Shown: positions 578 through 37,371 of the stretch, one piece after another
Position numbering within the stretch: position 1 is the stretch's first letter
How the letters are laid out: every line of letters begins with the position of its first letter
IMG/VR virus record: IMGVR_UViG_2579779116_000018
Location: 1-37,371 of that record
Strand: one strand, 5' to 3'
Source of the DNA: a virus
Taxonomy: Duplodnaviria > Heunggongvirae > Uroviricota > Caudoviricetes
DNA length: 37,371 bases
Position numbers and translations under genes: made by a program
Notes under the pieces: model-generated
Told to the model about the DNA's origin: nothing
The model's database searches: none
Seen by the model: only the letters and a program-made list of their open reading frames with translations

Positions 578-1624
578 ATGAAAATTAGGTTTGCGTGTGA
601 TATTGATTGGATTAAAAACAGTAGTCGTTCAATATCACCTAGTGTATTCGAATCTCGCATAATCGCTCTGTGTAAAGAAATTAACTATGAATTTCTTGGA
701 TTCTATGGTGAGTGGAAAGGGATTAAAACAAAACTTGTTCTAAAATGTAGTGAGGGGCATGTTTATAATTCTGCCACAATCGATGGATTTATTGGTTCTG
801 GGCGTCGTTGTCCTGAGTGCAAAAAGATTAATCTGGTAAAGAAAAAAATTCGTGCAATCTCTCCCGAAGAATATACGCGACGTCTTAATGATGTATGCCT
901 AGAAGATGGTTATACATTCATTGGATTCTATGGTGAGTGGAAAGGTAACGAGACAAAAGTAATCATGCGGTGTCCTCATGGTCATGAATATAACACAGCC
1001 ACTATAAACAGCTTTCTATGTGGTATTCGTTGTCCTGAATGTAAGCGAGACAAGCTAATAGCACGAAATACAATTTCTATTGAAGAGTATAACGAAAATA
1101 TAGAAAATATGTGTTCGTCTATCGGTTATGTTTATCATGGTATTGTTGGAGAATGGAAAGGGTATAACACTAAAATATCCCTTACTTGTTCGGCTGGTCA
1201 TACATTCAAGACGGCATCTATTAGAAGTTTTCTGTATAATGGTAGCCGTTGTCCTTGTTGTGCAAGTTACGGTTATAACGTGGCTAAAGCTGGTTATCTA
1301 TATGTACAGCACGTCACGGGCGAAGTTGAAGCCATTAAATTTGGAATCACCAACCGAAAACCGGAACAGCGAATGAGACAGCACATCAACCGTTCAAAGC
1401 TGAATCATGAACTTGTGTTCTCTATGAAATTTGAAGACGGGCAAAAGGCGCTGGATGTAGAAACGAGAATTAAGCAGATCTGGAAGGGGAAGACCGGATA
1501 TGTTTCAAGAGAGTTAATGGAAGATGGTTTTACAGAAACATTACCAGCCGAAATTATGAACGTTTTTTTAAAAGATGTTAAATCGATGTGCAATCTTGCT
1601 GTAATGAATATTAGCCTCGCCTAG
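578..1624 (+). CDS. protein with three tandem Zn-ribbon-like repeats and C-terminal T5orf172 (GIY-YIG-like) domain (348 aa)
   Basis: RBS AAGAGGAA before ATG. Three copies of about 50 aa unit F-x-G-E-W-K-G...T-K...C-x-x-G-H...R-C-P-x-C; C-terminal GYLYV...KFGIT.RKPEQRMRQH matches the T5orf172 signature from memory. Paralogous to 3405-4580 and 4735-5304. Confidence 0.75.
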   Translation: MKIRFACDIDWIKNSSRSISPSVFESRIIALCKEINYEFLGFYGEWKGIKTKLVLKCSEGHVYNSATIDGFIGSGRRCPECKKINLVKKKIRAISPEEYTRRLNDVCLEDGYTFIGFYGEWKGNETKVIMRCPHGHEYNTATINSFLCGIRCPECKRDKLIARNTISIEEYNENIENMCSSIGYVYHGIVGEWKGYNTKISLTCSAGHTFKTASIRSFLYNGSRCPCCASYGYNVAKAGYLYVQHVTGEVEAIKFGITNRKPEQRMRQHINRSKLNHELVFSMKFEDGQKALDVETRIKQIWKGKTGYVSRELMEDGFTETLPAEIMNVFLKDVKSMCNLAVMNISLA

Positions 1625-1637
1625 CGCGGGGCTTTTT
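1613..1637 (+). terminator. rho-independent terminator overlapping stop codon
   Basis: AGCCTCGC-ctagc-GCGGGGCT hairpin (one G-U pair) followed by TTTTT; stop TAG of the upstream gene lies in the loop. Confidence 0.6.
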
Positions 1638-1651
1638 ACTATGGGGTTATT

Positions 1652-3331
1652 ATGAAAACTAAGTTGTATTCATATATCCGCTTCTCGTCTATGAAGCAAG
1701 CGGATGGTAGTTCTTATGAACGCCAGAAGAGAACAGCGAAAGAGATAGCCGCAAAATATGATCTTGAGCTAGTTACAAGCTATCAGGATTTTGGTGTATC
1801 TGCATTCAAAGGGGCTAACAGTAGAACAGGTGCACTATCTCGCTTTCTGGATGAGATTGGTCGATCTGTTCCGGTTGGTAGCTGGCTGGTTGTGGAAAAC
1901 TTGGACCGTATCTCTCGCCAATCCATCATTGAAGCACAAGAGCTATTTCTCTCGATCATACGTAGGGGAATAACCATTGTCACTGGTATGGATGGGAAAG
2001 TGTATAGCCGCGAATCGGTTAATGCTAATCCCATCGATTTACTATTGAGTGTCATGTTGTTTGCGAGAGCTAACGAGGAAAGCCAGACTAAGCGCAATCG
2101 TACTAACTCAAGCGCACTGATTAAGATTAAGTCGCATCAAGAAAATCCCCAGAATCCGGCAGTGGCAATCGAGGAAGTTGGGAAGAATATGTGGTGGACG
2201 GATACCACTTCCGGTTATGTGTTGCCTCATCCTACATACTTCCCTGTTGTTCAGGAGATTGTGGAATTACGGAAGAATGGACGTTCAACCGCCGAAATAC
2301 TGGATCACCTTAACGAGACATATGCACCACCACCAGCAGTAAGCAACAAGAAGCATTCAAAATGGTCACGGGCAATGGTTGAAAGGTTGTTTCATACCCG
2401 CGCTTTGATTGGTATCAAGGAGGTCTCTGTCGATGGTGTTAACTATGAGTTAAAGGATTATTACCCTCGTGTTATTGATGATGCTACGTTCTATCACCTT
2501 AAGAAAAATATTGGTGCTAGAGCATGGAACTTTGGAGACAAGGAAGAAGTTAAACCGATCCCCCTGCTTAGTGGTATTGGCCTATTGAAATGTGATCATT
2601 GCGGTTGCGCTATGGTTAAAGTGAAGGGAACGAACAAACGTTCTGACCAGTATCGTTATACATGTGATGCGACCCGTTCACGTAGACTTGATTGCGAGCA
2701 TCCAAACTGGAGTTTTCGAGGTGATCAATTAGAGAAAGCTGTATTGCAATTGCTGGCTGATAAAATCTGGATTGCTGAGGACAAGGCTAATCCGGTTCCG
2801 GCGTTGAAAGTACAGGTTGATGAAATATCACGCAAGATTGATAACCTGATTGCCCTTTCTGCTATGACAGGAGCAACGAAGGAGCTAGCCGATCAGATTA
2901 CTACCCTCAATAGCGAGCGTGAAACACTCTACAATCAGATCAAGATGGCAGAAGAGGAAATGTATTCTGTTGACTCTCAAGGCTGGGAGAAGCTCGCAGA
3001 ATTTGATTTAGAAGATGTTTACAACGAGGAACGACTAAAGGTCCGGTTTAAGATTAAGCAAGCTCTAAAGCGGATCGGGTGTAGCAGGATTGACAGAAAC
3101 AAAAACTTGTTTGTACTGGAATACATCGATGGAAAGACCCAGAGAGTTGTAATAGAAAATTCAAGAGGAACGAGGAAAGGACAAATCTTTGTCGATTTGA
3201 AAACTATCAATGATAGGCAGATTCTGGAGAGTAACGGGCTTGTTCTGCATCCATGTTTAGACATGCTGACAGATAAGAACTGGAAACCAGAAGAGGAAAT
3301 ACCAGGTCCATTACAGGAATTTGGAATTTAA
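1652..3331 (+). CDS. large serine recombinase (559 aa)
   Basis: N-terminal resolvase-type catalytic domain (YSYIRFSSMKQ with candidate nucleophilic Ser), recombinase domain, Cys-rich zinc ribbon CDHCGC...YTCDATRSRRLDCEH, and C-terminal coiled coil: the typical large serine recombinase architecture. Confidence 0.9.
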   Translation: MKTKLYSYIRFSSMKQADGSSYERQKRTAKEIAAKYDLELVTSYQDFGVSAFKGANSRTGALSRFLDEIGRSVPVGSWLVVENLDRISRQSIIEAQELFLSIIRRGITIVTGMDGKVYSRESVNANPIDLLLSVMLFARANEESQTKRNRTNSSALIKIKSHQENPQNPAVAIEEVGKNMWWTDTTSGYVLPHPTYFPVVQEIVELRKNGRSTAEILDHLNETYAPPPAVSNKKHSKWSRAMVERLFHTRALIGIKEVSVDGVNYELKDYYPRVIDDATFYHLKKNIGARAWNFGDKEEVKPIPLLSGIGLLKCDHCGCAMVKVKGTNKRSDQYRYTCDATRSRRLDCEHPNWSFRGDQLEKAVLQLLADKIWIAEDKANPVPALKVQVDEISRKIDNLIALSAMTGATKELADQITTLNSERETLYNQIKMAEEEMYSVDSQGWEKLAEFDLEDVYNEERLKVRFKIKQALKRIGCSRIDRNKNLFVLEYIDGKTQRVVIENSRGTRKGQIFVDLKTINDRQILESNGLVLHPCLDMLTDKNWKPEEEIPGPLQEFGI

Positions 3332-3367
3332 GCGGCCTAAATCGACGTATAACGAGCTAAAACAGTT

Positions 3368-3396
3368 AAGGGGTACATTCGTACCCCTTTTTAATT
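3368..3396. terminator. bidirectional intrinsic terminator between convergent genes
   Basis: Perfect hairpin AAGGGGTAC-attc-GTACCCCTT followed by TTTTTAATTT; sits between the recombinase stop (3331) and the minus-strand gene stop (3405). Confidence 0.7.
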
Positions 3397-3404
3397 TAAT
3401 TGCA

Positions 3405-4580
3405 TTAGAGAGCGTTTAAGAGAGTATTAAAGTATTCATCCATTAAATCAGGATTGTTGTCATCAATACAGAAAAATTCCGGTTTATTGATGCCGTAGAA
3501 GTGAGTATGTAGCTTGAATGTATCGTCATCAAATACATCTTTCGGAGATACCCACATATTAGCCTCGTCCGGTTGATTGGTTAGGTAGTCATAAACCAGT
3601 TGCTGTAAGTGCGGCAACTCATCAATAGTCAGAGTTTCCGACCATCCATCCTTGAAATCTTTGTAGGGTGCTGCATGAGTCTTGAAGCGTTGTTTTACTT
3701 CATGCTCTAAATCGGCAGCTTTCCAACCATCCTCAAACTCATGAGTAAAGATTAAGCGGTGAGTGAAGTTGCTCTTTCTGGTTTGTTCTCTCATTCGTTC
3801 TTCTGGTTTTCGGGTAGTGATTCCAAATTTAATAAATTTGTCATCTAATAATTGAATGTAGAAACTAGCCTTACCCTGATAAGTCCGGTTAGACAGTTGC
3901 ACCAGTTGGTCTTTAATGCAAAGCGGACAAGTGAAAGAATCAGCACATCTTAAATGAGATTCCCATTCGTGGTTATGTGACTTGCAATAGGTTTTAAATT
4001 TAACATCCTTTAGGTGTGGGGTGTTTATGGTAAATCCTTTGAAGATGTAAGGTGTAGTCTCGCAACGTGCATTGATGATTGTCTCTTTGTCCTTAATAAC
4101 TTCATCAAAAGTCTTGCCACTTCTTACCCGTTGGGATTTTTCAGCCATACAGATTTTACAATCAAAATCAAAATCATCCTTGAGAGCATGTAATAGAGAT
4201 GGCGTCATGATTTGATTGTGTATAGGACACAAAACACGGGCTTTTGTCTTGTTGCGCCCTTTCCATTCTCCTTGCCATCCTAGAAACTTCTTTCCCTTCT
4301 CATTACAACGAGATTCCATTTTCAACCATACAGCCTTTTCAGTCTGGAATAACTCACCCCCGTTAGTATCTTCCAGTTTGCGTAATTTGTAGTCCTTATA
4401 TTCTTGTGTATCTAAATTGTAGATTCGAAAGTAAGTGTGATTACCCTTCCACGGTAGGATAAATCCACCAAATACGAAAGCAGGTTCCAGTTTAGCGATG
4501 ATTCGTTGTTGGTACTCTTCCGGCGATAAACCGCGAGTTTTCTTAACAAAAGGAATTTCGGCAGCGTAAGCAAGTTTCAT
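3405..4580 (-). CDS. Zn-ribbon-repeat / T5orf172 domain protein, paralog B (391 aa)
   Basis: Start moved from ORF-track 4691 to the internal ATG at 4578-4580, which has RBS AGAGGAAACTACT upstream and gives an N-terminus (MKLAYAAEIPFVKKTRGLSPEEY) matching the paralogs. WKG/C...CP.C repeats and C-terminal FYIQL...KFGITTRKPEERMREQ. Confidence 0.75.
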   Translation of the reverse strand: MKLAYAAEIPFVKKTRGLSPEEYQQRIIAKLEPAFVFGGFILPWKGNHTYFRIYNLDTQEYKDYKLRKLEDTNGGELFQTEKAVWLKMESRCNEKGKKFLGWQGEWKGRNKTKARVLCPIHNQIMTPSLLHALKDDFDFDCKICMAEKSQRVRSGKTFDEVIKDKETIINARCETTPYIFKGFTINTPHLKDVKFKTYCKSHNHEWESHLRCADSFTCPLCIKDQLVQLSNRTYQGKASFYIQLLDDKFIKFGITTRKPEERMREQTRKSNFTHRLIFTHEFEDGWKAADLEHEVKQRFKTHAAPYKDFKDGWSETLTIDELPHLQQLVYDYLTNQPDEANMWVSPKDVFDDDTFKLHTHFYGINKPEFFCIDDNNPDLMDEYFNTLLNAL

Positions 4581-4639
4581 AGTAGTTTCCTCTAAAATAA
4601 TAAGTTCACTACTATTTATTAGAGAAAATTGTCTTACTA

Positions 4640-4667
4640 TTGCATTCTCTATCTGAATGTGTATAAT
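4640..4667 (+). promoter_or_regulatory. putative sigma70 promoter for the 4735 gene
   Basis: TTGCAT (4640-4645), 16 bp spacer, TATAAT (4662-4667), in the divergent intergenic region 4581-4734. Confidence 0.4.
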
Positions 4668-4734
4668 ACGCGACCCTAAATCCCAAACCAACCATATTGA
4701 GGTTATGCCTATAAGTTAAAAAAGTGAGGTCTAT

Positions 4735-5304
4735 ATGATTCCAGTAATGGCTAAAGATATTGTTTTTACTCCTAAATCCTCCCGTGCTGTAACTCCATCG
4801 GCATTAGAACAACGCATTCTGACTCACATCAAAGATAAGGACTTACCATTAGTCTTTCATGGCTTTCTGGGTGAGTTTAAAGGGCTTCATTCAAGAATTG
4901 CTCTAACATGTACCCGATGCGGTAATAGAGCCGACAAATCAGCTACTAACCTGCTTAATGAAGGTAAACGATGTGTTTGCTTCAATAGTGACTACTTTCA
5001 ATATAAAGCGGGTGTGCCTTATCTCTATGTAATGAAGTCTGGGGATATTGGTAAATTTGGTGTTACAAAGTCAATCATCAAGCGACGTGTTAATCTGGGT
5101 GTACGCAATCCCGGTCATAACTTTGATATTGTCTTTGCTGGTGAAATGCCATCAATGAAACATGCTTTAGCCACTGAAAGAGCAATAAAGAGATTACTGG
5201 ATGTGGGTATAGGCGGGATTGAATACGGCAAAACTGAAACATTCCACTACTGCAATAAATCACTAAACAATATAAAGAATATTGCAAGTGTGGAGTGGAA
5301 CTAA
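4735..5304 (+). CDS. Zn-ribbon / T5orf172 domain protein, paralog C (189 aa)
   Basis: RBS GTGAGGT before ATG; one GEFKG...C..C...RCVC repeat and C-terminal PYLYV...GKFGVTKSIIKRR T5orf172-like segment. Confidence 0.75.
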   Translation: MIPVMAKDIVFTPKSSRAVTPSALEQRILTHIKDKDLPLVFHGFLGEFKGLHSRIALTCTRCGNRADKSATNLLNEGKRCVCFNSDYFQYKAGVPYLYVMKSGDIGKFGVTKSIIKRRVNLGVRNPGHNFDIVFAGEMPSMKHALATERAIKRLLDVGIGGIEYGKTETFHYCNKSLNNIKNIASVEWN

Positions 5305-6794
5305 TGCAAGATATTAAAATTCATTTTCAAGATTACAGTTTCGTTAAGGTTGATTGCTCTCCTTCTATCGGAATGGAATTAAGAGATTATTTCTCTTTTG
5401 AGGTTGAAGGGGCTAGGTTTAGCCCCCGATACAAGTATTCAGGCTGGGATGGACGAATAAGACTGTTTACGCATGAGAATACCCTACCAATTGGACTATT
5501 AAAAACGTTGGGTGTCTTTGTTAAAAATATGGGGTATTCAGTCTGGATTGACCCGCGATTGCTTGAGAAGGAAGATGTAACCAAAGAACAGATTGATTCA
5601 TGGATTGATTCTTTAGAAGTGTATTCCGGTAGCAATAAAATCAATCCTTACTGGTATCAGCGTGAAGCAGTCTTTCAGGGTATTCATAATCGCCGTAGAA
5701 TGCTGGTTCTTCCTACCAGTGCGGGTAAGTCATTGATTGCTTGTATGCTGTCTCGTTGGTACTTAGAGCATTACACCGGAAAGGTGTTAATCATTGTCCC
5801 GACTACATCGCTAGTGGTTCAAATGAGGGATGATTTCATCGATTATCGGTTATTCCCTTATGAAGCAATCCATACAATGATGAGTGGTAGCGGGAAACAT
5901 CCGGGAGACAGGTTAATCACGGTTAGTACCTGGCAATCAGCTTGCAAGATGCCTCCTGAATGGTTCAAACAATATGGAATGTTGATAGTTGATGAATCGC
6001 ATAAGGCTAGTGCCAAAAATATTACCAATATCATTAACGGAATGAATCATTGCCAATTTAAGATCGGCATGACTGGTTCCCCGAAAGAATCAAAGTGCCA
6101 TTTAATGCAGTATGTCGGGCTTTTCGGTGATATTTCCAAGATCGTGAGTATTGACCGCCTGATGGAAGAAGGGCAGGTGACAAAACTGAAAATTAACTGT
6201 CTTTTCCTTCGTTATACCGATGAGGAATGTAGCGCGGTTAAGGGGAGAGAATATGCGGAAGAGATCAAGTATATTACATCTAACCCACGACGTAATAAGT
6301 TTGCTTGCAATTTGGCGCTAAAACTCGCTAAGAAGGGCGAAAACGTATTCCTGATGTTCCGCAATACTAAGCACGGAAAACTTATGTATGACGCGTTACA
6401 GAAGGTACACGACAAGGTTTATTATATTGACGGTGGAGTTAAGACAGAAGAACGTGATGAATTTAAGAAAATGGCGGAGGGTGACACCGGGATCATTTGT
6501 GTTGCGTCTTATGGTGTGTTCTCTACTGGTGTTTCAATTAAGAATTTGCACCATGTTATTTTCGGTCATCCAGTGAAGGAATCAACTATCGTTCGTCAGA
6601 GTATCGGTCGTGCATTGCGTAAACATGGTTCTAAGGATATTGCAACGGTCTGGGATCTTATAGATCATCTGTGTATATTCGGTCGTAACGGAAAAATCAA
6701 GCATAAAAATTATGCGGTAAAACATGCACTTGAGAGAATCCGCTATTATCTAACCGACAAGTTCAGATATGCAACTAAAACAATTGCTATATAA
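5304..6794 (+). CDS. SF2 DEAD/DEAH-box DNA helicase (about 496 aa)
   Basis: Walker A LPTSAGKS, DESH box (LIVDESHKAS), motif III MTGSPK, motif VI VRQSIGRALR. Start taken as ATG 5304 (RBS GGAGTGG) rather than the ORF-track GTG at 5295. Confidence 0.85.
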   Translation: MQDIKIHFQDYSFVKVDCSPSIGMELRDYFSFEVEGARFSPRYKYSGWDGRIRLFTHENTLPIGLLKTLGVFVKNMGYSVWIDPRLLEKEDVTKEQIDSWIDSLEVYSGSNKINPYWYQREAVFQGIHNRRRMLVLPTSAGKSLIACMLSRWYLEHYTGKVLIIVPTTSLVVQMRDDFIDYRLFPYEAIHTMMSGSGKHPGDRLITVSTWQSACKMPPEWFKQYGMLIVDESHKASAKNITNIINGMNHCQFKIGMTGSPKESKCHLMQYVGLFGDISKIVSIDRLMEEGQVTKLKINCLFLRYTDEECSAVKGREYAEEIKYITSNPRRNKFACNLALKLAKKGENVFLMFRNTKHGKLMYDALQKVHDKVYYIDGGVKTEERDEFKKMAEGDTGIICVASYGVFSTGVSIKNLHHVIFGHPVKESTIVRQSIGRALRKHGSKDIATVWDLIDHLCIFGRNGKIKHKNYAVKHALERIRYYLTDKFRYATKTIAI

Positions 6795-6827: not shown

Positions 6828-7179
6828 ATCCATTCCATCGTGATTTTTTCGATCTGGAATCGATATGCGTAAAGGTTTTATATTTGCCTAAGCCGTATTG
6901 AGTAGGATATTTCCCATCAAGATAAGCATGGACAATATCAGGGGAGACACCCTTGATCACAATGTCAGCCGCACGGCCTCGAACGTGATAGCTGTTGGTT
7001 GCACCGCCTACATTCTTGTTATGAGTTGGGCAACGGTTCCCACTGTTAATAATTACTGGTTTCCCGAAGTGTTCGCGTACATCCTCAAGAATTACCAGTA
7101 ATTCAGCGTCGATTGTATCATAATCACATTTTCCACATTTACATTTAAATTCCTTGCGAGAAAAATGTTTGCTTAACAT
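6826..7179 (-). CDS. peptidase M15-family zinc peptidase, candidate endolysin (117 aa)
   Basis: N-terminal LSKHFSRKEF and SGNRCPTHNKNVGGATNSYHVRGRAADI ... THID match the M15 (VanY / L-Ala-D-Glu peptidase-like) metal-binding signature; strong RBS TAAGGGGGT; last gene of the late operon. Confidence 0.7.
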   Translation of the reverse strand: MLSKHFSRKEFKCKCGKCDYDTIDAELLVILEDVREHFGKPVIINSGNRCPTHNKNVGGATNSYHVRGRAADIVIKGVSPDIVHAYLDGKYPTQYGLGKYKTFTHIDSRSKKSRWNG

Positions 7180-7188
7180 ATTACCCCC

Positions 7189-13075: not shown

Positions 13076-13846
13076 TTATTTCTTGAAGTCTTCGTACATT
13101 CTACGAAGGTTGTATTTTGGATGGCCTAAGCTAACCATGATTTGACTCAATTTAACCGCGCCGGGTTTACCGTTTTCAATCCACACGCGCCGGATTTCAT
13201 CGTAATGCTGCCAACAGCCTTGACCTTTAGCAATACGTATAGAATGTGTATATTTCTTGGTAGAGCTTTCTGGTCGCTTGCGCCCTAGATGTGCTTTTCT
13301 AATCTTTTCGCGTGTTTCTTCTGATACAGGTTTACCATAACGGGGGTTATTCTCTCCACGAGTAGCAGCCGATAATTTAGCTAATATTTCTGGGTTTGTT
13401 ACTTTTTTGCCTCTCATTGCACTAGGTTTACCATAGCGATGGTTCTTTTCACCCATTCGAGATGCCGACATTTTAGCTCTAGATTCCGGTGTATGTTTTC
13501 TTCCGTAAAAAGGATGATTTTCACCACCATCAAAACCACCGACACCACCAGGAGCTATATTAAGACATACACCACGCCCCCATTTTTCGCGTGCTGCCTC
13601 CACTAACAGGATTTCACATTCAAACGCTTCCTCGGCAGTATCAAACAATTTTGAACGAACAACTTCAAATTCATATATCGGGGTTTCTGATTCTTTATTT
13701 TTACGCTTCATCATTTTAATAACTTTACCCGATCCCACATATCCATCGTCTAGATTTGTGGTTGTTCTTTTTCCGACGTAATGATAGATTTTACCAGAGC
13801 GATTAGATTTAATAGTGGTGTGATAAACGTAATGGAATTTTTGCAT
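13076..13846 (-). CDS. GIY-YIG homing endonuclease with NUMOD3-type repeats (256 aa)
   Basis: N-terminal HYVYHTT...SGKIYHYVGK...GYVGSG (GIY-YIG module) and three copies of N-x-P-x-Y-G-K/R-x-x-S/T-x-E-T/S-R-x-K-I/M (NUMOD3-like DNA-binding repeats); own RBS; inserted between minor tail genes. Confidence 0.85.
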   Translation of the reverse strand: MQKFHYVYHTTIKSNRSGKIYHYVGKRTTTNLDDGYVGSGKVIKMMKRKNKESETPIYEFEVVRSKLFDTAEEAFECEILLVEAAREKWGRGVCLNIAPGGVGGFDGGENHPFYGRKHTPESRAKMSASRMGEKNHRYGKPSAMRGKKVTNPEILAKLSAATRGENNPRYGKPVSEETREKIRKAHLGRKRPESSTKKYTHSIRIAKGQGCWQHYDEIRRVWIENGKPGAVKLSQIMVSLGHPKYNLRRMYEDFKK

Positions 13847-23850: not shown

Positions 23851-24273
23851 TTAAAAACGCGCTAGATAAGAAAATTTAAGGCTAAGTGTCCCAACGATAC
23901 CACCATCACTAGAATCATCGTCATAATCGGTATTAGAGGCTACTGGAGTGATATCTGAAATTGAGAAGCCCAAATCTTTAAAACGTGGGTTATCCGGCTG
24001 AATCTGGATTATCTGGCAAATACCCTCATGAATTTTGGTTTCATGAATCTGAGAATATAATTGCATTTCGATAACGCATTCAGCTTGCATTGCATTACCA
24101 CCACGAACACGCGTATAAGTTTCATTCATGCCAGTGATCCAACAAACCACGTCATCACTAAAGCCTTGCTGAGTTTGTTCTACGTTTAAAGCCAGACCTA
24201 AATCTTGTTCGATAATATCTTGCAAGGCGCGTTTGATTTTCAGTCTAGGCATATTATTAACGGTAGCGAGCAT
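23851..24273 (-). CDS. head-tail connector protein candidate (about 140 aa)
   Basis: Start placed at internal ATG 24271-24273 with RBS AGGGGGT; small protein directly after the capsid gene region, typical position of head completion proteins. Confidence 0.5.
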   Translation of the reverse strand: MLATVNNMPRLKIKRALQDIIEQDLGLALNVEQTQQGFSDDVVCWITGMNETYTRVRGGNAMQAECVIEMQLYSQIHETKIHEGICQIIQIQPDNPRFKDLGFSISDITPVASNTDYDDDSSDGGIVGTLSLKFSYLARF

Positions 24274-24547
24274 GTGTACCCCCTGCCAGAGTGATAAAGC
24301 AATCAGAAGTATTATCACCATTGCGCTTAACGTATTGAACTTTGAAACGCTGATTTTCTACAATGACAATATCACCCTGCTTTAAGTCTCCCTCACGACA
24401 AAATAGAAATTCTGTCTCTGTCATTACCCCTTGTTCGTCGGTAGTAGTAATTTCATGATAAGCACGAATTGATTTACCACCTTCCACCGAAAATACAGGA
24501 GCACTCTTAAACATTCTTGATAATTGTGATTCTGATAATTTGAACAT
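24257..24547 (-). CDS. head-tail connector protein candidate (96 aa)
   Basis: RBS AAGGGGGTAACT; first gene after the capsid terminator; typical position of a head-tail adaptor. Confidence 0.5.
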   Translation of the reverse strand: MFKLSESQLSRMFKSAPVFSVEGGKSIRAYHEITTTDEQGVMTETEFLFCREGDLKQGDIVIVENQRFKVQYVKRNGDNTSDCFITLAGGTHARYR

Positions 24548-33008: not shown

Positions 33009-33037
33009 ATCATAAAAAAGTCAGAAATTTTTGTCAA
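33009..33037 (-). promoter_or_regulatory. sigma70-type promoter (minus strand)
   Basis: On the minus strand TTGACA (33032-33037), 17 bp spacer, TATGAT (33009-33014); drives the small ORF and Rha gene. Confidence 0.5.
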
Positions 33038-33072
33038 TACCCCTTGACAAGACGCCAAAGGGTTGACCTAAC

Positions 33073-33525
33073 TTACAGCATATCTAAGCCTTCATCGTAA
33101 CCGTAGAAGCCACCGTGAGAAGAAAAACAGATTGGAGCGTAGTCTTCGTCTTCCTCATCTTCTTCATCTTGTTCTGGGGCTTCCTGAGCGGGTTGTTTAC
33201 CATAATCAGCCATAATCTGGTCAAGATCGGCGATCCCATAGTAAGAGCCTAAATCAACGTCATATTCACGAACATCAAACGGCAGGTCATCACGAACAAT
33301 AATTGCCGGAATGTTGTTGTATTGTTCACGACCTTCATCAGTAAAGCAGTCTACGATCACCGTAGGGCGACCATTACGTTTAAAAGCATAGAAAGCAGTT
33401 GAGAAATTGGAGTCTTCGGAATGACGAATGATGTTATAACCACGATTAGCGAAAACATGCATCATAGCCAGATTATCATCATGGTTCAGACCCAGAAGTA
33501 CGAAAGGAGTTTTAGTATTGATCAT
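33073..33525 (-). CDS. acidic hypothetical protein (about 150 aa)
   Basis: Start placed at ATG 33523-33525 with RBS AGAGGATACCACT; C-terminal acidic run EEDEEDED; first leftward gene leaving the control region. Confidence 0.6.
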   Translation of the reverse strand: MINTKTPFVLLGLNHDDNLAMMHVFANRGYNIIRHSEDSNFSTAFYAFKRNGRPTVIVDCFTDEGREQYNNIPAIIVRDDLPFDVREYDVDLGSYYGIADLDQIMADYGKQPAQEAPEQDEEDEEDEDYAPICFSSHGGFYGYDEGLDML

Positions 33526-33725
33526 AGTGGTATCCTCTAAAAGAAAGTGAATCAAACAAAGTACACTAGTATTTATAACGAGAATTTTTTATCTATTTGG
33601 AAGTGATTAGATTCAGTCGGCTTCGCCTCCTTCATAGATTTTGATTAAATCATCATCAAAACGAAGAAGTATCTTTAGAATATAAGAATCTTTCTTTTGG
33701 AGAAATTATAATCAGGAAGCAATTT

Positions 33726-34057
33726 AGCAACCGAAGGTTGCAATCCCGAAGGGATACCAATACCTTTCATGATCATTAAAGTGATCTAGAATCATCTAGT
33801 AACCAGTTAACTACTATTATCTTCAAAGTGATTATTACTATCTTTCTAGAATCAGTTAGTAACTAGTTTAAAATCCCTTTCAAGAAAATCCTTTCAGAAG
33901 TGATTCTCGATGCCACGCAGTGGCGTCGCAGACGTTTGAGAGTGAGCGAAGCGAGCGAGCAAACTAGTTAATTCCTTCTAAGACCATCTAGTATCATCTA
34001 GTTTAAATTAGTGTTACTAGAAGTAATTGGTTAGCGCTTCGCGCAGTCGGGCTACGC
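33726..34057. repeat. three pairs of short tandem hairpins interleaved with CTAG-rich AT-rich repeats
   Basis: Pairs at 33726-33753 (GCAACCgaaGGTTGC + ATCCCgaaGGGAT), 33911-33934 (GCCACgcaGTGGC + CGTCgcaGACG), 34032-34057 (GCGCttcGCGC + GGGCtacGCCC), separated by repeats such as TCTAGAATCATCTAGTAACCAGTT. Confidence 0.4.
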
Positions 34058-34203
34058 CCTCCTAATATCTTTTTGGTTATTTGTTGTTTTTGGTTTTACA
34101 CATGAGCGTAGCGAATGTGTTATATAATATCTATGCACGCCCGATCCCCGCTTTTGCCCCTCACTAAGTTAATGTTTTATAAAGAGTTTTTCTTACCAAT
34201 CCT

Positions 34204-34393
34204 TTTCGGGGGCAAATTTCAGGGGCAAAAATTAGATTTTCAGGGGCAATTATTGGCATTTCAGGGGCAAAAATGAGGGGCAAAATCACCGTTTCCCAGA
34301 ATTTCAGGGGCAAAAATAGTAGGTTTCAGGGGCAAAAATGGGATAGTGAAATCTAGGGGGATTTTGGTTCAGGGGCAAAATTCAGGGGCAATT
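34204..34393. repeat. iteron-like direct repeats, consensus TTCAGGGGCAAAA (about 10 copies)
   Basis: Copies at approx 34204, 34218, 34238, 34260, 34274, 34304, 34324, 34352 (degenerate), 34369, 34381, irregularly spaced; all same orientation; immediately upstream of the promoter at 34461. Confidence 0.7.
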
Positions 34394-34460
34394 TTCATAG
34401 TGTAGGGCTAGTGTAGGTTTGAAAGTCCTTTCTTGACACTATGTAGGTTTGGTGCTATAC

Positions 34461-34490
34461 TTGACAATTCGAGAAAAAATGTGGTATAAT
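34461..34490 (+). promoter_or_regulatory. strong sigma70 promoter with extended -10
   Basis: TTGACA (34461-34466), 18 bp spacer, TGGTATAAT (34482-34490). Confidence 0.6.
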
Positions 34491-34727
34491 ATTTGTATTG
34501 AAAGTGAAAATTTACCGATTTTCCTTCCTATTGTTATCACCGTGTTAAATTGTTATATGTTTGTGAAGATTTGGATCTGAGAGAAAATCTTGTAACAAAT
34601 CTTTACAATTCATAGCTCAATTAATGCTCACCGCTTTAGCAAAAAGTGCTATGCAATTTTCTAAATTGATTGAATAAACATCAATTTGGTTAATTCGTGT
34701 TCTTCTCTTTAGCAATTCGTGCTGCGG

Positions 34728-34780
34728 TTTAACACATTTAACACGTCTGATAACATCTGAATAACATTTTAACATATCTC
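34728..34780 (+). repeat. five phased TAACA repeats at about 10-11 bp spacing
   Basis: TTAACACA, TTAACACG, GATAACATC, AATAACATT, TTTAACATA in the same orientation, one per helical turn. Confidence 0.4.
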
Positions 34781-34817
34781 TGTTATAAATACATATATAA
34801 GAGATAAATGTGAGGGG

Positions 34818-34847
34818 TTGAAAAATAAAATACAATCCCCATATAAA
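34818..34847 (+). promoter_or_regulatory. possible second promoter
   Basis: TTGAAA (34818-34823), 18 bp spacer, TATAAA (34842-34847); weaker match. Confidence 0.3.
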
Positions 34848-34854
34848 TAATAGT

Positions 34855-34875
34855 GAGCGGTTAACGCTCTTTTTT
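34855..34875 (+). terminator. intrinsic terminator / attenuator within the leader
   Basis: GAGCG-gttaa-CGCTC hairpin followed by TTTTTT, 35 nt upstream of ATG 34911. Confidence 0.5.
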
Positions 34876-34910
34876 AAGAAATCATTAATCCAGATTTAGG
34901 AGGATTTAAG

Positions 34911-35093
34911 ATGGCACGACCTGTTAAGTTCACTCGTGAAATCGTTTTAGAAATGGCAAAGCGTTATTTTGAACTGACACCTGATGTAGTGATGGGTGAA
35001 TGGTTTAAAGGTGAAGGTATTGATCAATCAACCTTCCACAAACTCTTAAAGAAGTATGACATTAAAGTAAAGATTACCGCAGAGGTGTGGTAA
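34911..35093 (+). CDS. small putative DNA-binding protein (60 aa)
   Basis: Strong RBS AGGAGGA; MARPVKF N-terminus and STFHKLLKKYDIKVKI C-terminal motif, paralogous to 31467-31694. Confidence 0.6.
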   Translation: MARPVKFTREIVLEMAKRYFELTPDVVMGEWFKGEGIDQSTFHKLLKKYDIKVKITAEVW

Positions 35094-35206
35094 TAACCTT
35101 TCACTGAGAATTATATGATGGCTTTAAAAAAGAAAAAGCCTCCCTTGTTGCAGCAAAGGAGGCTTGAAATGAACAATTAAAACTAACTTTCCACGGAGTA
35201 TTTATA

Positions 35207-36148
35207 ATGTTATTTTCCGCTAACTTTTTCACTAACGAAGTAACCAACGCTAAAGCAGTTATCAAATTTGGCACCGAAGCAAACAAGAAGATTCAGCCGA
35301 AAGTTGTTGCTCATGTTTCCTTTGCACAGCAGAAATCCGCTTTCGCTGGCTTTAAAGCACATCGTGAAGCACTGATCGCGGCTGGCTTTGGTGTTGACGG
35401 TAAACTGCCTAACGGCATTCGTAAAGCAATCGACCGCGTTAAACCTGCTAAAGACGTTGCAGTAGACCACATCGTTACTTTTACCGTTAAGAACTCTTCT
35501 GAACTGTTCCACCTGGTTATTGCTGGTGATACTGCTATCGTTTCCGCTCCTAACATGGATTTTCAGGATACCGCTGATTGCCAGATCACCTTCGGTCGTC
35601 GTAAAGAAGTTACCGGAAAAGCTAAACTGAACTTCACTAAATCCGGCAATCCTTACTTTGCTGTTTTCTTTAACAGCCACGCTACCGAAAAAGAAGTTGT
35701 AGAACTGGTTGCTTATGAAGGTGAAGAGAAAGAACGTATTGAATCTTGCGAAGCATTTCTGGAACTGGAAGCACAGGTGAATGCTGTTTCTCCGGTTGTT
35801 GAAGATCGCTTTGCTGCACTGGAAGCACAGATCGCAGAACTGAAAGCTGCACTGGAAGAAAAAGACCAGATTATCGAAGCACAGAAAGCTGAGATTGAAG
35901 AACTGAAAGCTAAAGAAGTTGCTCCGGTGGCAGTAGTTGAAAACGCGGCTGATGAGGCCGCAAATGATGAAGTAGAAGTGAAAATCGATGTGATGCGTGA
36001 TCCGATGGCTGCACTGCAATTACTTCGTTCTTTTAAGGGCAAATCTCATTTTTCTAGTGATGTAGAAGATGAGGAAGAAGAACAGAAACGCAATGCTGCA
36101 ATGCTTCATGATGAAATGTACGGTACTAACTTTTCTTACTGCCAATAA
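35207..36148 (+). CDS. abundant hypothetical protein with coiled coil and acidic C-terminus (313 aa)
   Basis: RBS GGAG; codon usage visibly different from the rest of the window (CTG, GAA, AAA, GCT, CGT-rich, as in highly expressed E. coli genes); heptad-like EAQIAELKAALEEKDQIIEAQKAEIEELKAKE; followed by terminator. Confidence 0.75.
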   Translation: MLFSANFFTNEVTNAKAVIKFGTEANKKIQPKVVAHVSFAQQKSAFAGFKAHREALIAAGFGVDGKLPNGIRKAIDRVKPAKDVAVDHIVTFTVKNSSELFHLVIAGDTAIVSAPNMDFQDTADCQITFGRRKEVTGKAKLNFTKSGNPYFAVFFNSHATEKEVVELVAYEGEEKERIESCEAFLELEAQVNAVSPVVEDRFAALEAQIAELKAALEEKDQIIEAQKAEIEELKAKEVAPVAVVENAADEAANDEVEVKIDVMRDPMAALQLLRSFKGKSHFSSDVEDEEEEQKRNAAMLHDEMYGTNFSYCQ

Positions 36149-36810: not shown

Positions 36811-37371
36811 TTAAGACACATCAAATTCATCGTCTTCTTCTGGTTCTTGTTCTTGTTCTTCCGGTTCATCCATTAATGGTAATTCTTCTTCCTCGTCTTC
36901 TCCCAAATCTGCATTTTCGAACAAGTCCCCTACTTCATTTAAACGACGCTCGATAATCTCCCTTAGCTTATTCTTTAATGTTTTCTGGTCAGTGGCAGAT
37001 TCGAGAATTTCTAAAGCGTCGATTGTGGCGATCTGCAAAATAGTCTGCTTCACTTTCCCGCAGTATTCCGCTAGTTCCTGTTCTACATACCCGACCGGAA
37101 TCAGGAGATTCATAGCTTCCTGGTTCTCTCGTTCGGCTGCATCCGCTAATGCTCTTTCCCGGCGCAACTTCTCAACATCTATTTGTTCTTTTATAGAAGT
37201 TTCTTTGAGCGGATTAATGATGTTCTTCAAGACCCATTCTGTCCCTTCTTTGGCTGGTACGCGTCGTGTATTGGTATTAAATGGCATTCCTCGTTCTTGC
37301 CATTTCTTAGCGGCGTTAATTGTATAGCCGTATAAGCGGGAAATTTCTGTAAGGGTTAATTCTTCTTTCAT
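36811..37371 (-). CDS. Nu1-like DNA-binding protein, candidate terminase small subunit (at least 186 aa)
   Basis: N-terminal LTLTEISRLYGYTINAAKKWQERGMPF resembles the lambda Nu1 winged-helix segment (IRTIQNWQEQGMPV); acidic C-terminus. The ATG coincides with the last 3 nt of the window, so the true 5' end is not verifiable. Confidence 0.6.
   Translation of the reverse strand: MKEELTLTEISRLYGYTINAAKKWQERGMPFNTNTRRVPAKEGTEWVLKNIINPLKETSIKEQIDVEKLRRERALADAAERENQEAMNLLIPVGYVEQELAEYCGKVKQTILQIATIDALEILESATDQKTLKNKLREIIERRLNEVGDLFENADLGEDEEEELPLMDEPEEQEQEPEEDDEFDVS

Follow-up and report, generated by a model that had tools for sequence, protein, structure and literature searches.

A structured, terminator-ended leader RNA as a candidate attenuator of an iteron-linked operon in enterobacterial prophages

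Introduction

The c4 RNA of phages P1 and P7, the CA RNA of N15 and the CI RNA of P4 follow a shared plan. A strong constitutive promoter gives rise to a structured non-coding leader that is complementary to a downstream site of the same transcript; transcription is terminated prematurely or translation is blocked, and a small first open reading frame (ORF) is followed by a gene for a protein of ∼300–350 amino acids (aa). A similar arrangement is found in a 37,371-nucleotide (nt) stretch of phage DNA (IMG/VR virus record IMGVR_UViG_2579779116_000018, positions 1 to 37,371; referred to below as the window), where a leader of ∼380 nt lies between strong promoters and two genes, p60 and p313, whose products have 60 and 313 aa. 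The reading put forward here, which is given about an even chance of being correct, is that this structured, terminator-ended leader RNA would attenuate the conserved p60–p313 operon of a cassette that also carries an array of short repeats (iterons). The phage lineage is uncharacterised, and the leader makes up a new RNA family whose general kind is known.

The locus departs from the c4, CA and P4 CI systems in several respects: (i) the leader has no sequence or structure homology to them, cmscan giving no hit in Rfam, where the c4/CA and P4 CI-type families are expected to be found, (ii) the complement is only 9–10 nt long and is missing in three leader types, (iii) p313 is no homologue of an antirepressor and is linked to an array of iterons. 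A second likeness is to the PR′-6S RNA-tR′ region of phage λ, and to the StxS RNA of Stx phages, where a strong promoter directs a short RNA, the terminator lies just before the first gene and expression depends on read-through. The present locus differs in having no Q-like gene, an RNA of twice the length with a high degree of structure, and downstream genes that encode helix-turn-helix and iteron-linked proteins, with the late genes on the other strand.

The DNA around the leader calls to mind the λ O/ori, P1 RepA/oriR and P4 alpha/ori-crr regions. In these, as at the present locus, ∼10 direct repeats with a two-turn spacing lie beside an A+T-rich segment, and repeats of different specificity go with different DNA-binding domains in the adjacent protein. 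The differences are that p313 belongs to no known initiator family and that a 380-nt terminated leader and a helix-turn-helix gene intervene between the iterons and the protein gene; the origin role is putative here.

Promoters, terminator and coding potential

Relatives of the locus were drawn from IMG/VR, from E. coli genomes and from the surroundings of p60 homologues of Salmonella, Proteus and Edwardsiella, and eight leader types were compared; the leader of the window is of class A, and a second class is termed B. The locus has the generic layout of an attenuator, with a promoter, an untranslated leader, and a G+C hairpin followed by a U-run before the first gene (Table 1). An earlier note on this DNA, made from its letters alone, had described a single near-consensus promoter with an extended −10 at 34461–34490. 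That promoter, here P2, is as described, with a 12/12 match and the TG of the extended −10, and it is the second of a tandem pair of sigma-70 promoters, P1 overlapping its upstream end (34433–34461). In 18 class A relatives the −10 hexamer of P2 is invariant and its spacer variable. Between P2 and the start of p60 no promoter matches better than 9/12, so that expression of p60 and p313 must come from read-through.

The hairpin and T6 terminator that had been placed at 34855–34875 can be located down to its stem, loop and T-run. The hairpin has an energy of ∼−8.3 kcal/mol and is present in both the minimum free energy (MFE) and the centroid folds, and its U-run ends 35 nt before the ATG at 34911. 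Because the stem has just 5 base pairs (bp), partial rather than complete termination would be expected, and partial read-through without a dedicated antitermination factor is likely. The earlier note had proposed either a non-coding RNA or an attenuator leader requiring antitermination. A non-coding, sense-structured leader with a conserved plan stands; the required antitermination is unsupported, given the 5-bp stem and the lack of any N-, Q- or Nun-like protein among the window proteins scanned or of an arginine-rich motif in p60. Candidate antiterminators seen by eye are pairings of only 5–7 bp (e.g. GCUCAC at 34626–34631 with GUGAGC at 34853–34858) and do not go beyond chance. A λ-type Q antitermination module was rejected on the missing Q-like match among the scanned proteins and on the − strand position of the structural genes.

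The leader is indeed free of credible ORFs: the longest have 17 codons (ATG start) and 21 codons (TTG start), none with a Shine-Dalgarno (SD) sequence. A 72-aa ORF on the reverse strand starts with TTG, has no SD, is interrupted in 4/17 class A variants and is absent from class B. With no conserved ORF, a hidden small protein was rejected. So were the −10-like TATAAATA motifs as internal promoters, which come without a −7 T or a −35 element.

A long leader whose terminator lies directly 5′ of the first replication-control gene, with a small helix-turn-helix regulator, is also a feature of the rep leaders of pT181, pIP501 and pAMbeta1. Countertranscript attenuation as in pT181 and pIP501, in which an antisense RNA from the leader would induce the terminator fold, is suggested by this layout and by the replication-type protein encoded downstream. 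It is nevertheless very improbable: no − strand promoter-like site of at least 9/12 is found within the leader (34497–34875) or in most other types, and the terminator is already part of the minimum-energy fold without a partner. The setting differs as well, being an iteron-type cassette of an Enterobacterales temperate phage.

Table 1. Positions of the leader, its internal elements and the flanking features in the window
Feature	Position	Strand	Description
Iteron array	34154..34391	+	nine direct and one inverted T(C/G)(A/G)GGGGCAA (TCAGGGGCAA), spacing ∼21–22 or 43 bp, directly upstream of the promoters
Promoter P1	34433..34461	+	TTGACA-17-TATACT, 11/12, extended −10 TG; kept in class A relatives
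Promoter P2 (promoter of the earlier note)	34461..34490	+	TTGACA-18-TATAAT, 12/12, extended −10 TG
Structured non-coding leader (class A)	34497..34875	+	∼379 nt, from the predicted P2 start to the end of the U-run
Long-range helix, 5′ arm	34532..34562	+	TGTTA x3 (34532–34551); invariant between E. coli and Salmonella A-type
Inverted repeat	34561–34573 / 34596–34608		13 nt, 92% complementary
CTTTAGCAATTCGTGCT block	34707..34723	+	longest block common to class A and class B leaders
Long-range helix, 3′ arm	34729..34778	+	five phased TAACA (34730, 34739, 34751, 34762, 34770); invariant between E. coli and Salmonella A-type
AUCUCU...AGAGAU hairpin	34776..34805	+	presents UAUAAAUAC (34784–34792); motif kept in every leader type
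GAGGGGUUG-loop-CAAUCCCC hairpin	34812..34854	+	same element at the 5′ end of class B leaders; hairpin followed by an A/U-rich second copy of the AAAUAC motif (34842–34851)
Intrinsic terminator	34855..34875	+	stem GAGCG/CGCTC 34855–34869 (5 bp), loop GTTAA, T6 34870–34875
p60 gene	34911..35093	+	60 aa, three-helix helix-turn-helix; SD AGGAGG 34898–34903; first operon gene
Intercistronic hairpin	35136..35165		12 bp, kept in relatives; resembles a strong terminator on the − strand
GUAUUUAUAA	35198..35207	+	between p313 SD and AUG; perfect 10-nt complement of the leader loop
p313 gene	35207..36148	+	313 aa; variable N-terminal domain, coiled coil, acidic C-terminal region

Fold of the leader RNA

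The leader is far more structured than could be seen from its letters alone. The class A sense strand (34497–34880) folds with an MFE of −102.4 kcal/mol against −65.3 ± 4.9 kcal/mol for shuffled sequences (z = −7.65), whereas its antisense strand reaches −87.5 kcal/mol (z = −4.4). The corresponding values for class B are −82.0 kcal/mol (z = −4.55) for the sense and −61.4 kcal/mol (z = −1.4) for the antisense strand. Across the eight independent types, the sense MFE is the lower in 7/8 and the sense z-score in 6/8. This strand asymmetry arises because many of the pairs are G-U, and it argues for selection acting on the sense RNA rather than on the duplex DNA.

Base pairing is also kept as the sequence changes. 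In 15 distinct class B sequences, 97.8% of the cells of a 71-pair structure hold standard pairs, compared with 30–48% in slid controls. Double-sided changes occur at five pairs (10 cells), a result matched by 1/500 and 0/500 shuffles, and the remaining variable pairs mostly switch between G-U and A-U or G-C. Nine compensatory pairs separate the E. coli from the Salmonella A-type leader, and whole internal hairpins are swapped for other hairpins.

Several internal elements can be recognised. The inverted repeat AAGATTT...AAATCTT reported earlier is real and extends to the 13 nt given in Table 1. The five TAACA repeats, likewise noticed before, form the 3′ arm of a long-range helix, and five copies within 50 nt are seen in 0/300 shuffles; apart from these 5-nt motifs, the only repeat in the leader is one 32-nt pair at 72% identity. 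The CTTTAGCAATTCGTGCT block has a degenerate second copy at 34634–34650. The hairpin that presents UAUAAAUAC folds as well in 4/1000 flank shuffles; its stems differ among types, and in the class B alignment, where it is helix 3, compensatory changes affect two of its pairs. Its AAAUAC motif recurs in an A/U-rich form, UAUAAAUAAU, just 5′ of the terminator at 34842–34851. In the fold of the read-through transcript, a pyrimidine tract, UCCUUCCUA (34522–34530), can pair with the SD region of p60, UAGGAGGA (34897–34904), which may be a cis-acting anti-SD or may be due to chance.

The covariance-model search suggested in the earlier note was run with the Rfam models and matches no family, be it C4 antisense RNA, the P4 CI/IsrK-type RNAs, riboswitches, or the T-box and ribosomal-protein leaders. 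At gathering score, cmscan returns 0 hits across the whole window and eight related loci; in E-value mode over 33500–35300, all matches fall far under the gathering scores and none is sensible over the leader. Other identities were tried and rejected: a type III toxin-antitoxin system of the ToxIN kind, there being no ∼34–36 nt tandem repeats, no ToxN-family gene and no Pfam or PADLOC match for the downstream proteins, and a retron, there being no reverse transcriptase gene.

Conservation and mosaicism of the leader

The order of promoter, leader, terminator and gene is kept in three further genera, with the Edwardsiella copy being atypical; what is not kept is the sequence, which is a mosaic. 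All eight leader types have a sigma-70 promoter matching 10–12/12 at 128–450 nt upstream of the p60 ATG. In 7/8, a short G+C hairpin with a U-run ends 35–36 nt before that ATG, and the loop of this terminator varies by type (GUUAA, GAAAA, UAUUAC, AAA, GCAA). In Edwardsiella the promoter matches less well, the stem of the terminator-like hairpin is entirely different, and its T-run is broken up.

Classes A and B have only four blocks in common, of which the middle two exchange places between the classes: CTTTAGCAATTCGTGCT, the GGGGUUG...CAAUCCCC hairpin, the UAUAAAUAC hairpin, and the terminator with the ribosome-binding region of p60. Class A is present in 27/5426 and class B in 31/5426 complete E. 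coli genomes, and RefSeq has nothing annotated under the leader. In genome contigs, a profile search for p60 returned nothing, and a 17-mer search gave 66 hits in 596 Gb, about the chance expectation for a 17-mer. Two Salmonella loci, L204 (∼3020–3040) and L205 (∼2875–2895), carry a perfect sigma-54 consensus, TTGGCACGGCATTTGCATA, with the iterons on one side and the leader on the other; the L204 site takes the place of the sigma-70 promoters directly before the A-type RNA domain. The window has no sigma-54 consensus site.

Could the promoter, the hairpins and the T-run be chance features of A+T-rich intergenic DNA without any function? Counts of promoter-like and terminator-like sites in a 2.5-kb scan are not above those of shuffles. 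A 12/12 promoter with TG is very unlikely to arise by chance, however, and with the plan kept across genera, the covarying stems, the fixed position of the terminator and the z-score of the fold, this explanation is scarcely credible.

A stand-alone, trans-acting small RNA (sRNA) of ∼380 nt, with host or phage targets elsewhere, would equally have a strong promoter and a defined 3′ end, and read-through would then be incidental. The 3′ part of the leader, in which a hairpin with a U6 tail comes after an A/U-rich tract, has the usual make-up of an Hfq-binding module, and the RNA modules of the leader shuffle independently of the flanking genes. The constant 35–36 nt between terminator and p60 in 7/8 types nevertheless ties the RNA to the operon, and elsewhere in the prophage no contiguous complement of at least 13 nt exists, the best (12 nt) being at chance level, so that an sRNA of this kind is rather unlikely. 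Comparison of the leader with all translation initiation regions by RNAduplex was uninformative, as long interior loops are allowed. The data would fit a separate RNA acting in trans as well as a leader acting purely in cis.

Iteron array and the p60–p313 operon

The iteron array upstream and the co-varying p313 downstream, both absent from the earlier note, give the element its meaning. The 10 iteron sites are clustered, with just two one-mismatch matches elsewhere in 37 kb. Related prophages have other array types in the same place, GTGTAGG, (A/C)GGGGA(T/A/C), CTAGGGAT and TAGTGCAGG, and the array type agrees in 35/35 loci with that of the N-terminal 170 residues encoded by the gene after p60. 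The linkage is seen with both leader classes and with several p60 variants and so spans recombination breakpoints. One Salmonella protein shares ∼66% identity with p313 in the N-terminal domain and goes with the same iterons; Proteus and Salmonella proteins that are 56% identical to each other both go with CTAGGGAT; and proteins that are 40% identical go with iterons one base apart. Altogether, at least five iteron types pair with swapped N-terminal domains of a 309–377 aa protein encoded two genes downstream (the window and loci L031, L033, L200 and L202–L205), and the coiled coil and the C-terminal region are the only parts common to p313-type proteins (hhalign 98%). Such pairings suggest that p313 binds the iterons.

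Clustered repeats that co-vary with a DNA-binding-type domain of the adjacent protein are what is seen at iteron origins. Two points favour an origin-like role of the cassette, namely that the array is single and that it adjoins the most A+T-rich 500 bp of the phage (34501–35000, GC 0.318, the lowest in the window). Family-library and PDB profile searches show no homology of p313 to known initiators. The cassette looks like a replication-origin/initiator module or a switch module.

An origin could also act at the level of the DNA, through the iterons and the A+T-rich segment, with the promoter providing transcriptional activation or an R-loop primer, as at T4 oriF/oriG and with ColE1 RNA II, and with the RNA fold being secondary. 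No other initiator or origin is recognisable in the scanned window, and the phage encodes a helicase of the UvsW type, which removes origin R-loops in T4. Such a DNA-level origin is quite unlikely as an account of the leader: the strand-asymmetric folding, the many G-U pairs and the switches from G-U to A-U or G-C point to selection on the sense RNA; the transcript ends at the terminator, where an rU:dA hybrid is a poor primer; the leader, with a GC skew of 0.069 and almost no G-richness, is not R-loop-prone; and its length varies from 93 to 414 nt among types.

The first gene begins at 34911, as the earlier note had it, behind an AGGAGG SD, and its 60-aa product is kept in E. coli, Salmonella, Edwardsiella and Proteus. 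An AlphaFold2 (AF2) model of p60 has a predicted local distance difference test (pLDDT) score of 75, and its best fold matches are the DNA-binding domains of NtrC4, DeoR and Fis, none of them significant. Relatives of the p313 N-terminal domain number 11 among 1.84 billion representatives, and a homologue search with p313 finds only near-identical E. coli hypothetical proteins; the p313 gene is listed in 2262 blocks of the public-assembly collection. Searches of PHROG, Pfam, NCBIfam and PADLOC give no match for p60, p313 or p160, the first product of the leftward unit; sequence profiles of the p313 family match only coiled coils in the PDB, and a single-sequence AlphaFold model of p313 (pLDDT 46) is too poor for use. 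Alanine ends 9/10 of the aligned p313-family proteins, and six end in -AA, which resembles a ClpX degron on a speculative reading; the window copy ends in NFSYCQ and may have lost such a signal. On the + strand, AAGGAGG lies in the 3′ arm of the intercistronic hairpin, and a mini-ORF of three codons (ATG AAC AAT TAA) comes 6 nt further on.

Complementarity between the leader loop and p313

The loop sequence UUAUAAAUAC (34783–34792) is perfectly complementary over 10 nt to GUAUUUAUAA in the p313 initiation region, a match reached in 10/500 shuffles. A perfect complement of 9–10 nt between the loop and the initiation region of the p313-type gene is seen in 5/8 types, and in three of these five the flanking bases co-vary, as a C and G combination in Edwardsiella and as U and A in two Salmonella types. 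No comparable match to the p60 initiation region is found. The complementarity hints at an additional antisense control of p313 of the P1 c4 kind.

Genomic setting of the prophage

The window covers nearly the whole of a ∼38-kb E. coli prophage of ∼40% G+C, inserted inside ycdX and adjoining ghrA. Lysogens include E. coli UTME-12 (NZ_CP157095) and O55:H7 DEC5A. A PHP-domain (ycdX-like) gene also borders related Proteus and Salmonella prophages (L200–L203), so that the integration site seems to be kept across genera. The prophage is distant from every INPHARED phage, the closest TerL in that collection having 43% identity; megablast and blastn of 34100–35200 against phages and plasmids give zero DNA matches, and a literature search on the ycdX prophage yielded nothing relevant.

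The structural genes run on the − strand from 30743 down to 6826, and λ-type gpA terminase, portal, head, tail and lysis genes are found on this strand. Genes for a large serine recombinase and for several nucleases of the CapR, GIY-YIG and HNH types are recognisable; four nuclease-like genes (CapR-domain, GIY-YIG/T5orf172 and homing-endonuclease families) lie at 578–5304 and 13076–13846, and the gene for the T4 UvsW-type helicase lies at 5295–6794. Of the window ORFs that were scanned against protein family libraries, none matches a repressor or replication-initiator family. A Nu1-like small terminase gene (36811–37371) lies 6 kb away from the large terminase gene. In the Edwardsiella tarda relative L198, a gene for a 543-aa protein with reverse transcriptase and TIR domains (6913–7183) stands next to the Nu1-like gene and is probably defence cargo. 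ARAGORN calls a tRNA-Gln with anticodon UUG at 23996–24086 (+), within the − strand structural ORF 23851–24321; at 91 nt it is unusually long and may be spurious.

The leader lies in a 1.35-kb ORF-poor region, flanked on one side by the leftward unit of p160 and a Rha-family regulator and on the other by the rightward p60 and p313. At 33785–34060, G+C-rich islands, among them a conserved GGCTACGCC, are bordered by four TCTAGAATCATCTAGTA-like repeats; this could be a cos site for packaging or a region bound by some other protein. The 51-aa/Rha unit has an 11/12 sigma-70 promoter on the − strand (33009–33050) with the dyad TTGTCAA-N6-TTGACAA. Class B leader promoters read TTGACA-NN-TGTCAA, and CTTTTTTAT(A/G)AT is common to them and to the 51-aa/Rha promoter, which suggests a common operator for some repressor.

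Discussion

In the proposed mechanism, tandem promoters P1 and P2 would start a non-coding RNA whose fold comprises a closed multi-branch domain and a pair of conserved hairpins, with an A/U-rich tract and a short intrinsic terminator after them. Most transcripts would probably end at this terminator, so that leader RNA would be abundant, its 3′ end resembling those of Hfq-type sRNAs, and the fraction that reads through would be the only evident source of messenger RNA for p60 and p313. The p313 protein would in turn bind the ten iterons just upstream of the promoters, which would make the cassette a replication-origin/initiator or switch module, and the leader would serve as its transcriptional attenuator. 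A second, tentative layer is that the AAAUAC loop and its A/U-rich twin might block translation of p313, whether acting in cis or after release as terminated RNA.

Several observations weigh against attenuation by the leader or against this second layer. The covariation is real and modest, because sequence identity within a class is 93–99.8%. In Salmonella L204, the A-type domain lies upstream of a sigma-70 promoter and behind a sigma-54-type promoter, so that this domain is not obligatorily the 5′ untranslated region of the sigma-70 promoter. Beyond its coiled coil, p313 falls into no Pfam, PHROG, NCBIfam, PADLOC or PDB sequence family. Of ten variant types, only four have an AAAUAC hairpin of significant stability; the complementarity to p313 is missing in 3/8 types (L031, L200 and L202), the match being short and A/U-rich; and the p313 initiation region is not paired with the leader in the equilibrium fold of the read-through transcript. 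Finally, the motif (T)TATAAATA(C/A)TAGTG is also present, in transcript orientation, upstream of p160 (33565–33600, − strand) and in its L016-L194 homologues. Around that copy the sequence nearly coincides with a portion of the Salmonella L205 leader.

The AAAUAC motif could, then, be a shared DNA site or a nut-like RNA site instead of an antisense element. In HK022 put and λ nut, a conserved hairpin motif is likewise placed downstream of the early promoters of both divergent units and upstream of a terminator. At the present locus the motif is found in the leader and upstream of p160, in the manner of λ nutL and nutR, and precedes the terminator in every type; a cis-acting, processive antitermination RNA or factor-loading site at this hairpin, by modifying RNA polymerase or recruiting a factor of the phage, would let polymerase read through downstream terminators. 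There is no sequence or structure similarity to put or nut and no Rfam match, however, and no partner protein can be recognised, N-, Q- and Nun-like proteins being absent from the scanned set and p60 being without an arginine-rich motif. The hairpin is weak in several types and is not convincing upstream of p160, which leaves a put- or nut-like role a decidedly slim prospect.

If the attenuation reading is taken a step further, the abundant terminated leader RNA might itself be the immunity determinant that holds lysogeny, in a lineage where neither a protein repressor nor a replication initiator can be recognised, with its AAAUAC loops keeping p313, as iteron-binding initiator, untranslated and the operon being prematurely terminated, in a system evolved independently of P4, P1 and N15. 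This is a bold proposal with only a small chance of being right. If true, it would be an RNA-based lysogeny switch in which modular RNA domains shuffle between phages.

The leader would represent a large, strongly structured RNA family that Rfam does not contain. The family comprises two mosaic classes, of ∼300 and ∼380 nt, is unannotated in ∼1% of complete E. coli genomes and extends to prophages of Salmonella, Proteus and Edwardsiella. With at least five natural and apparently orthogonal pairs of iterons and binding domains, supplied with a consensus promoter and an attenuator, the cassette may be of use in synthetic biology. The module that the leader would control is the sole replication or switch candidate in a temperate lineage unrelated to cultured phages, and the leader may thereby offer an entry point to how such prophages stay silent and begin replicating.

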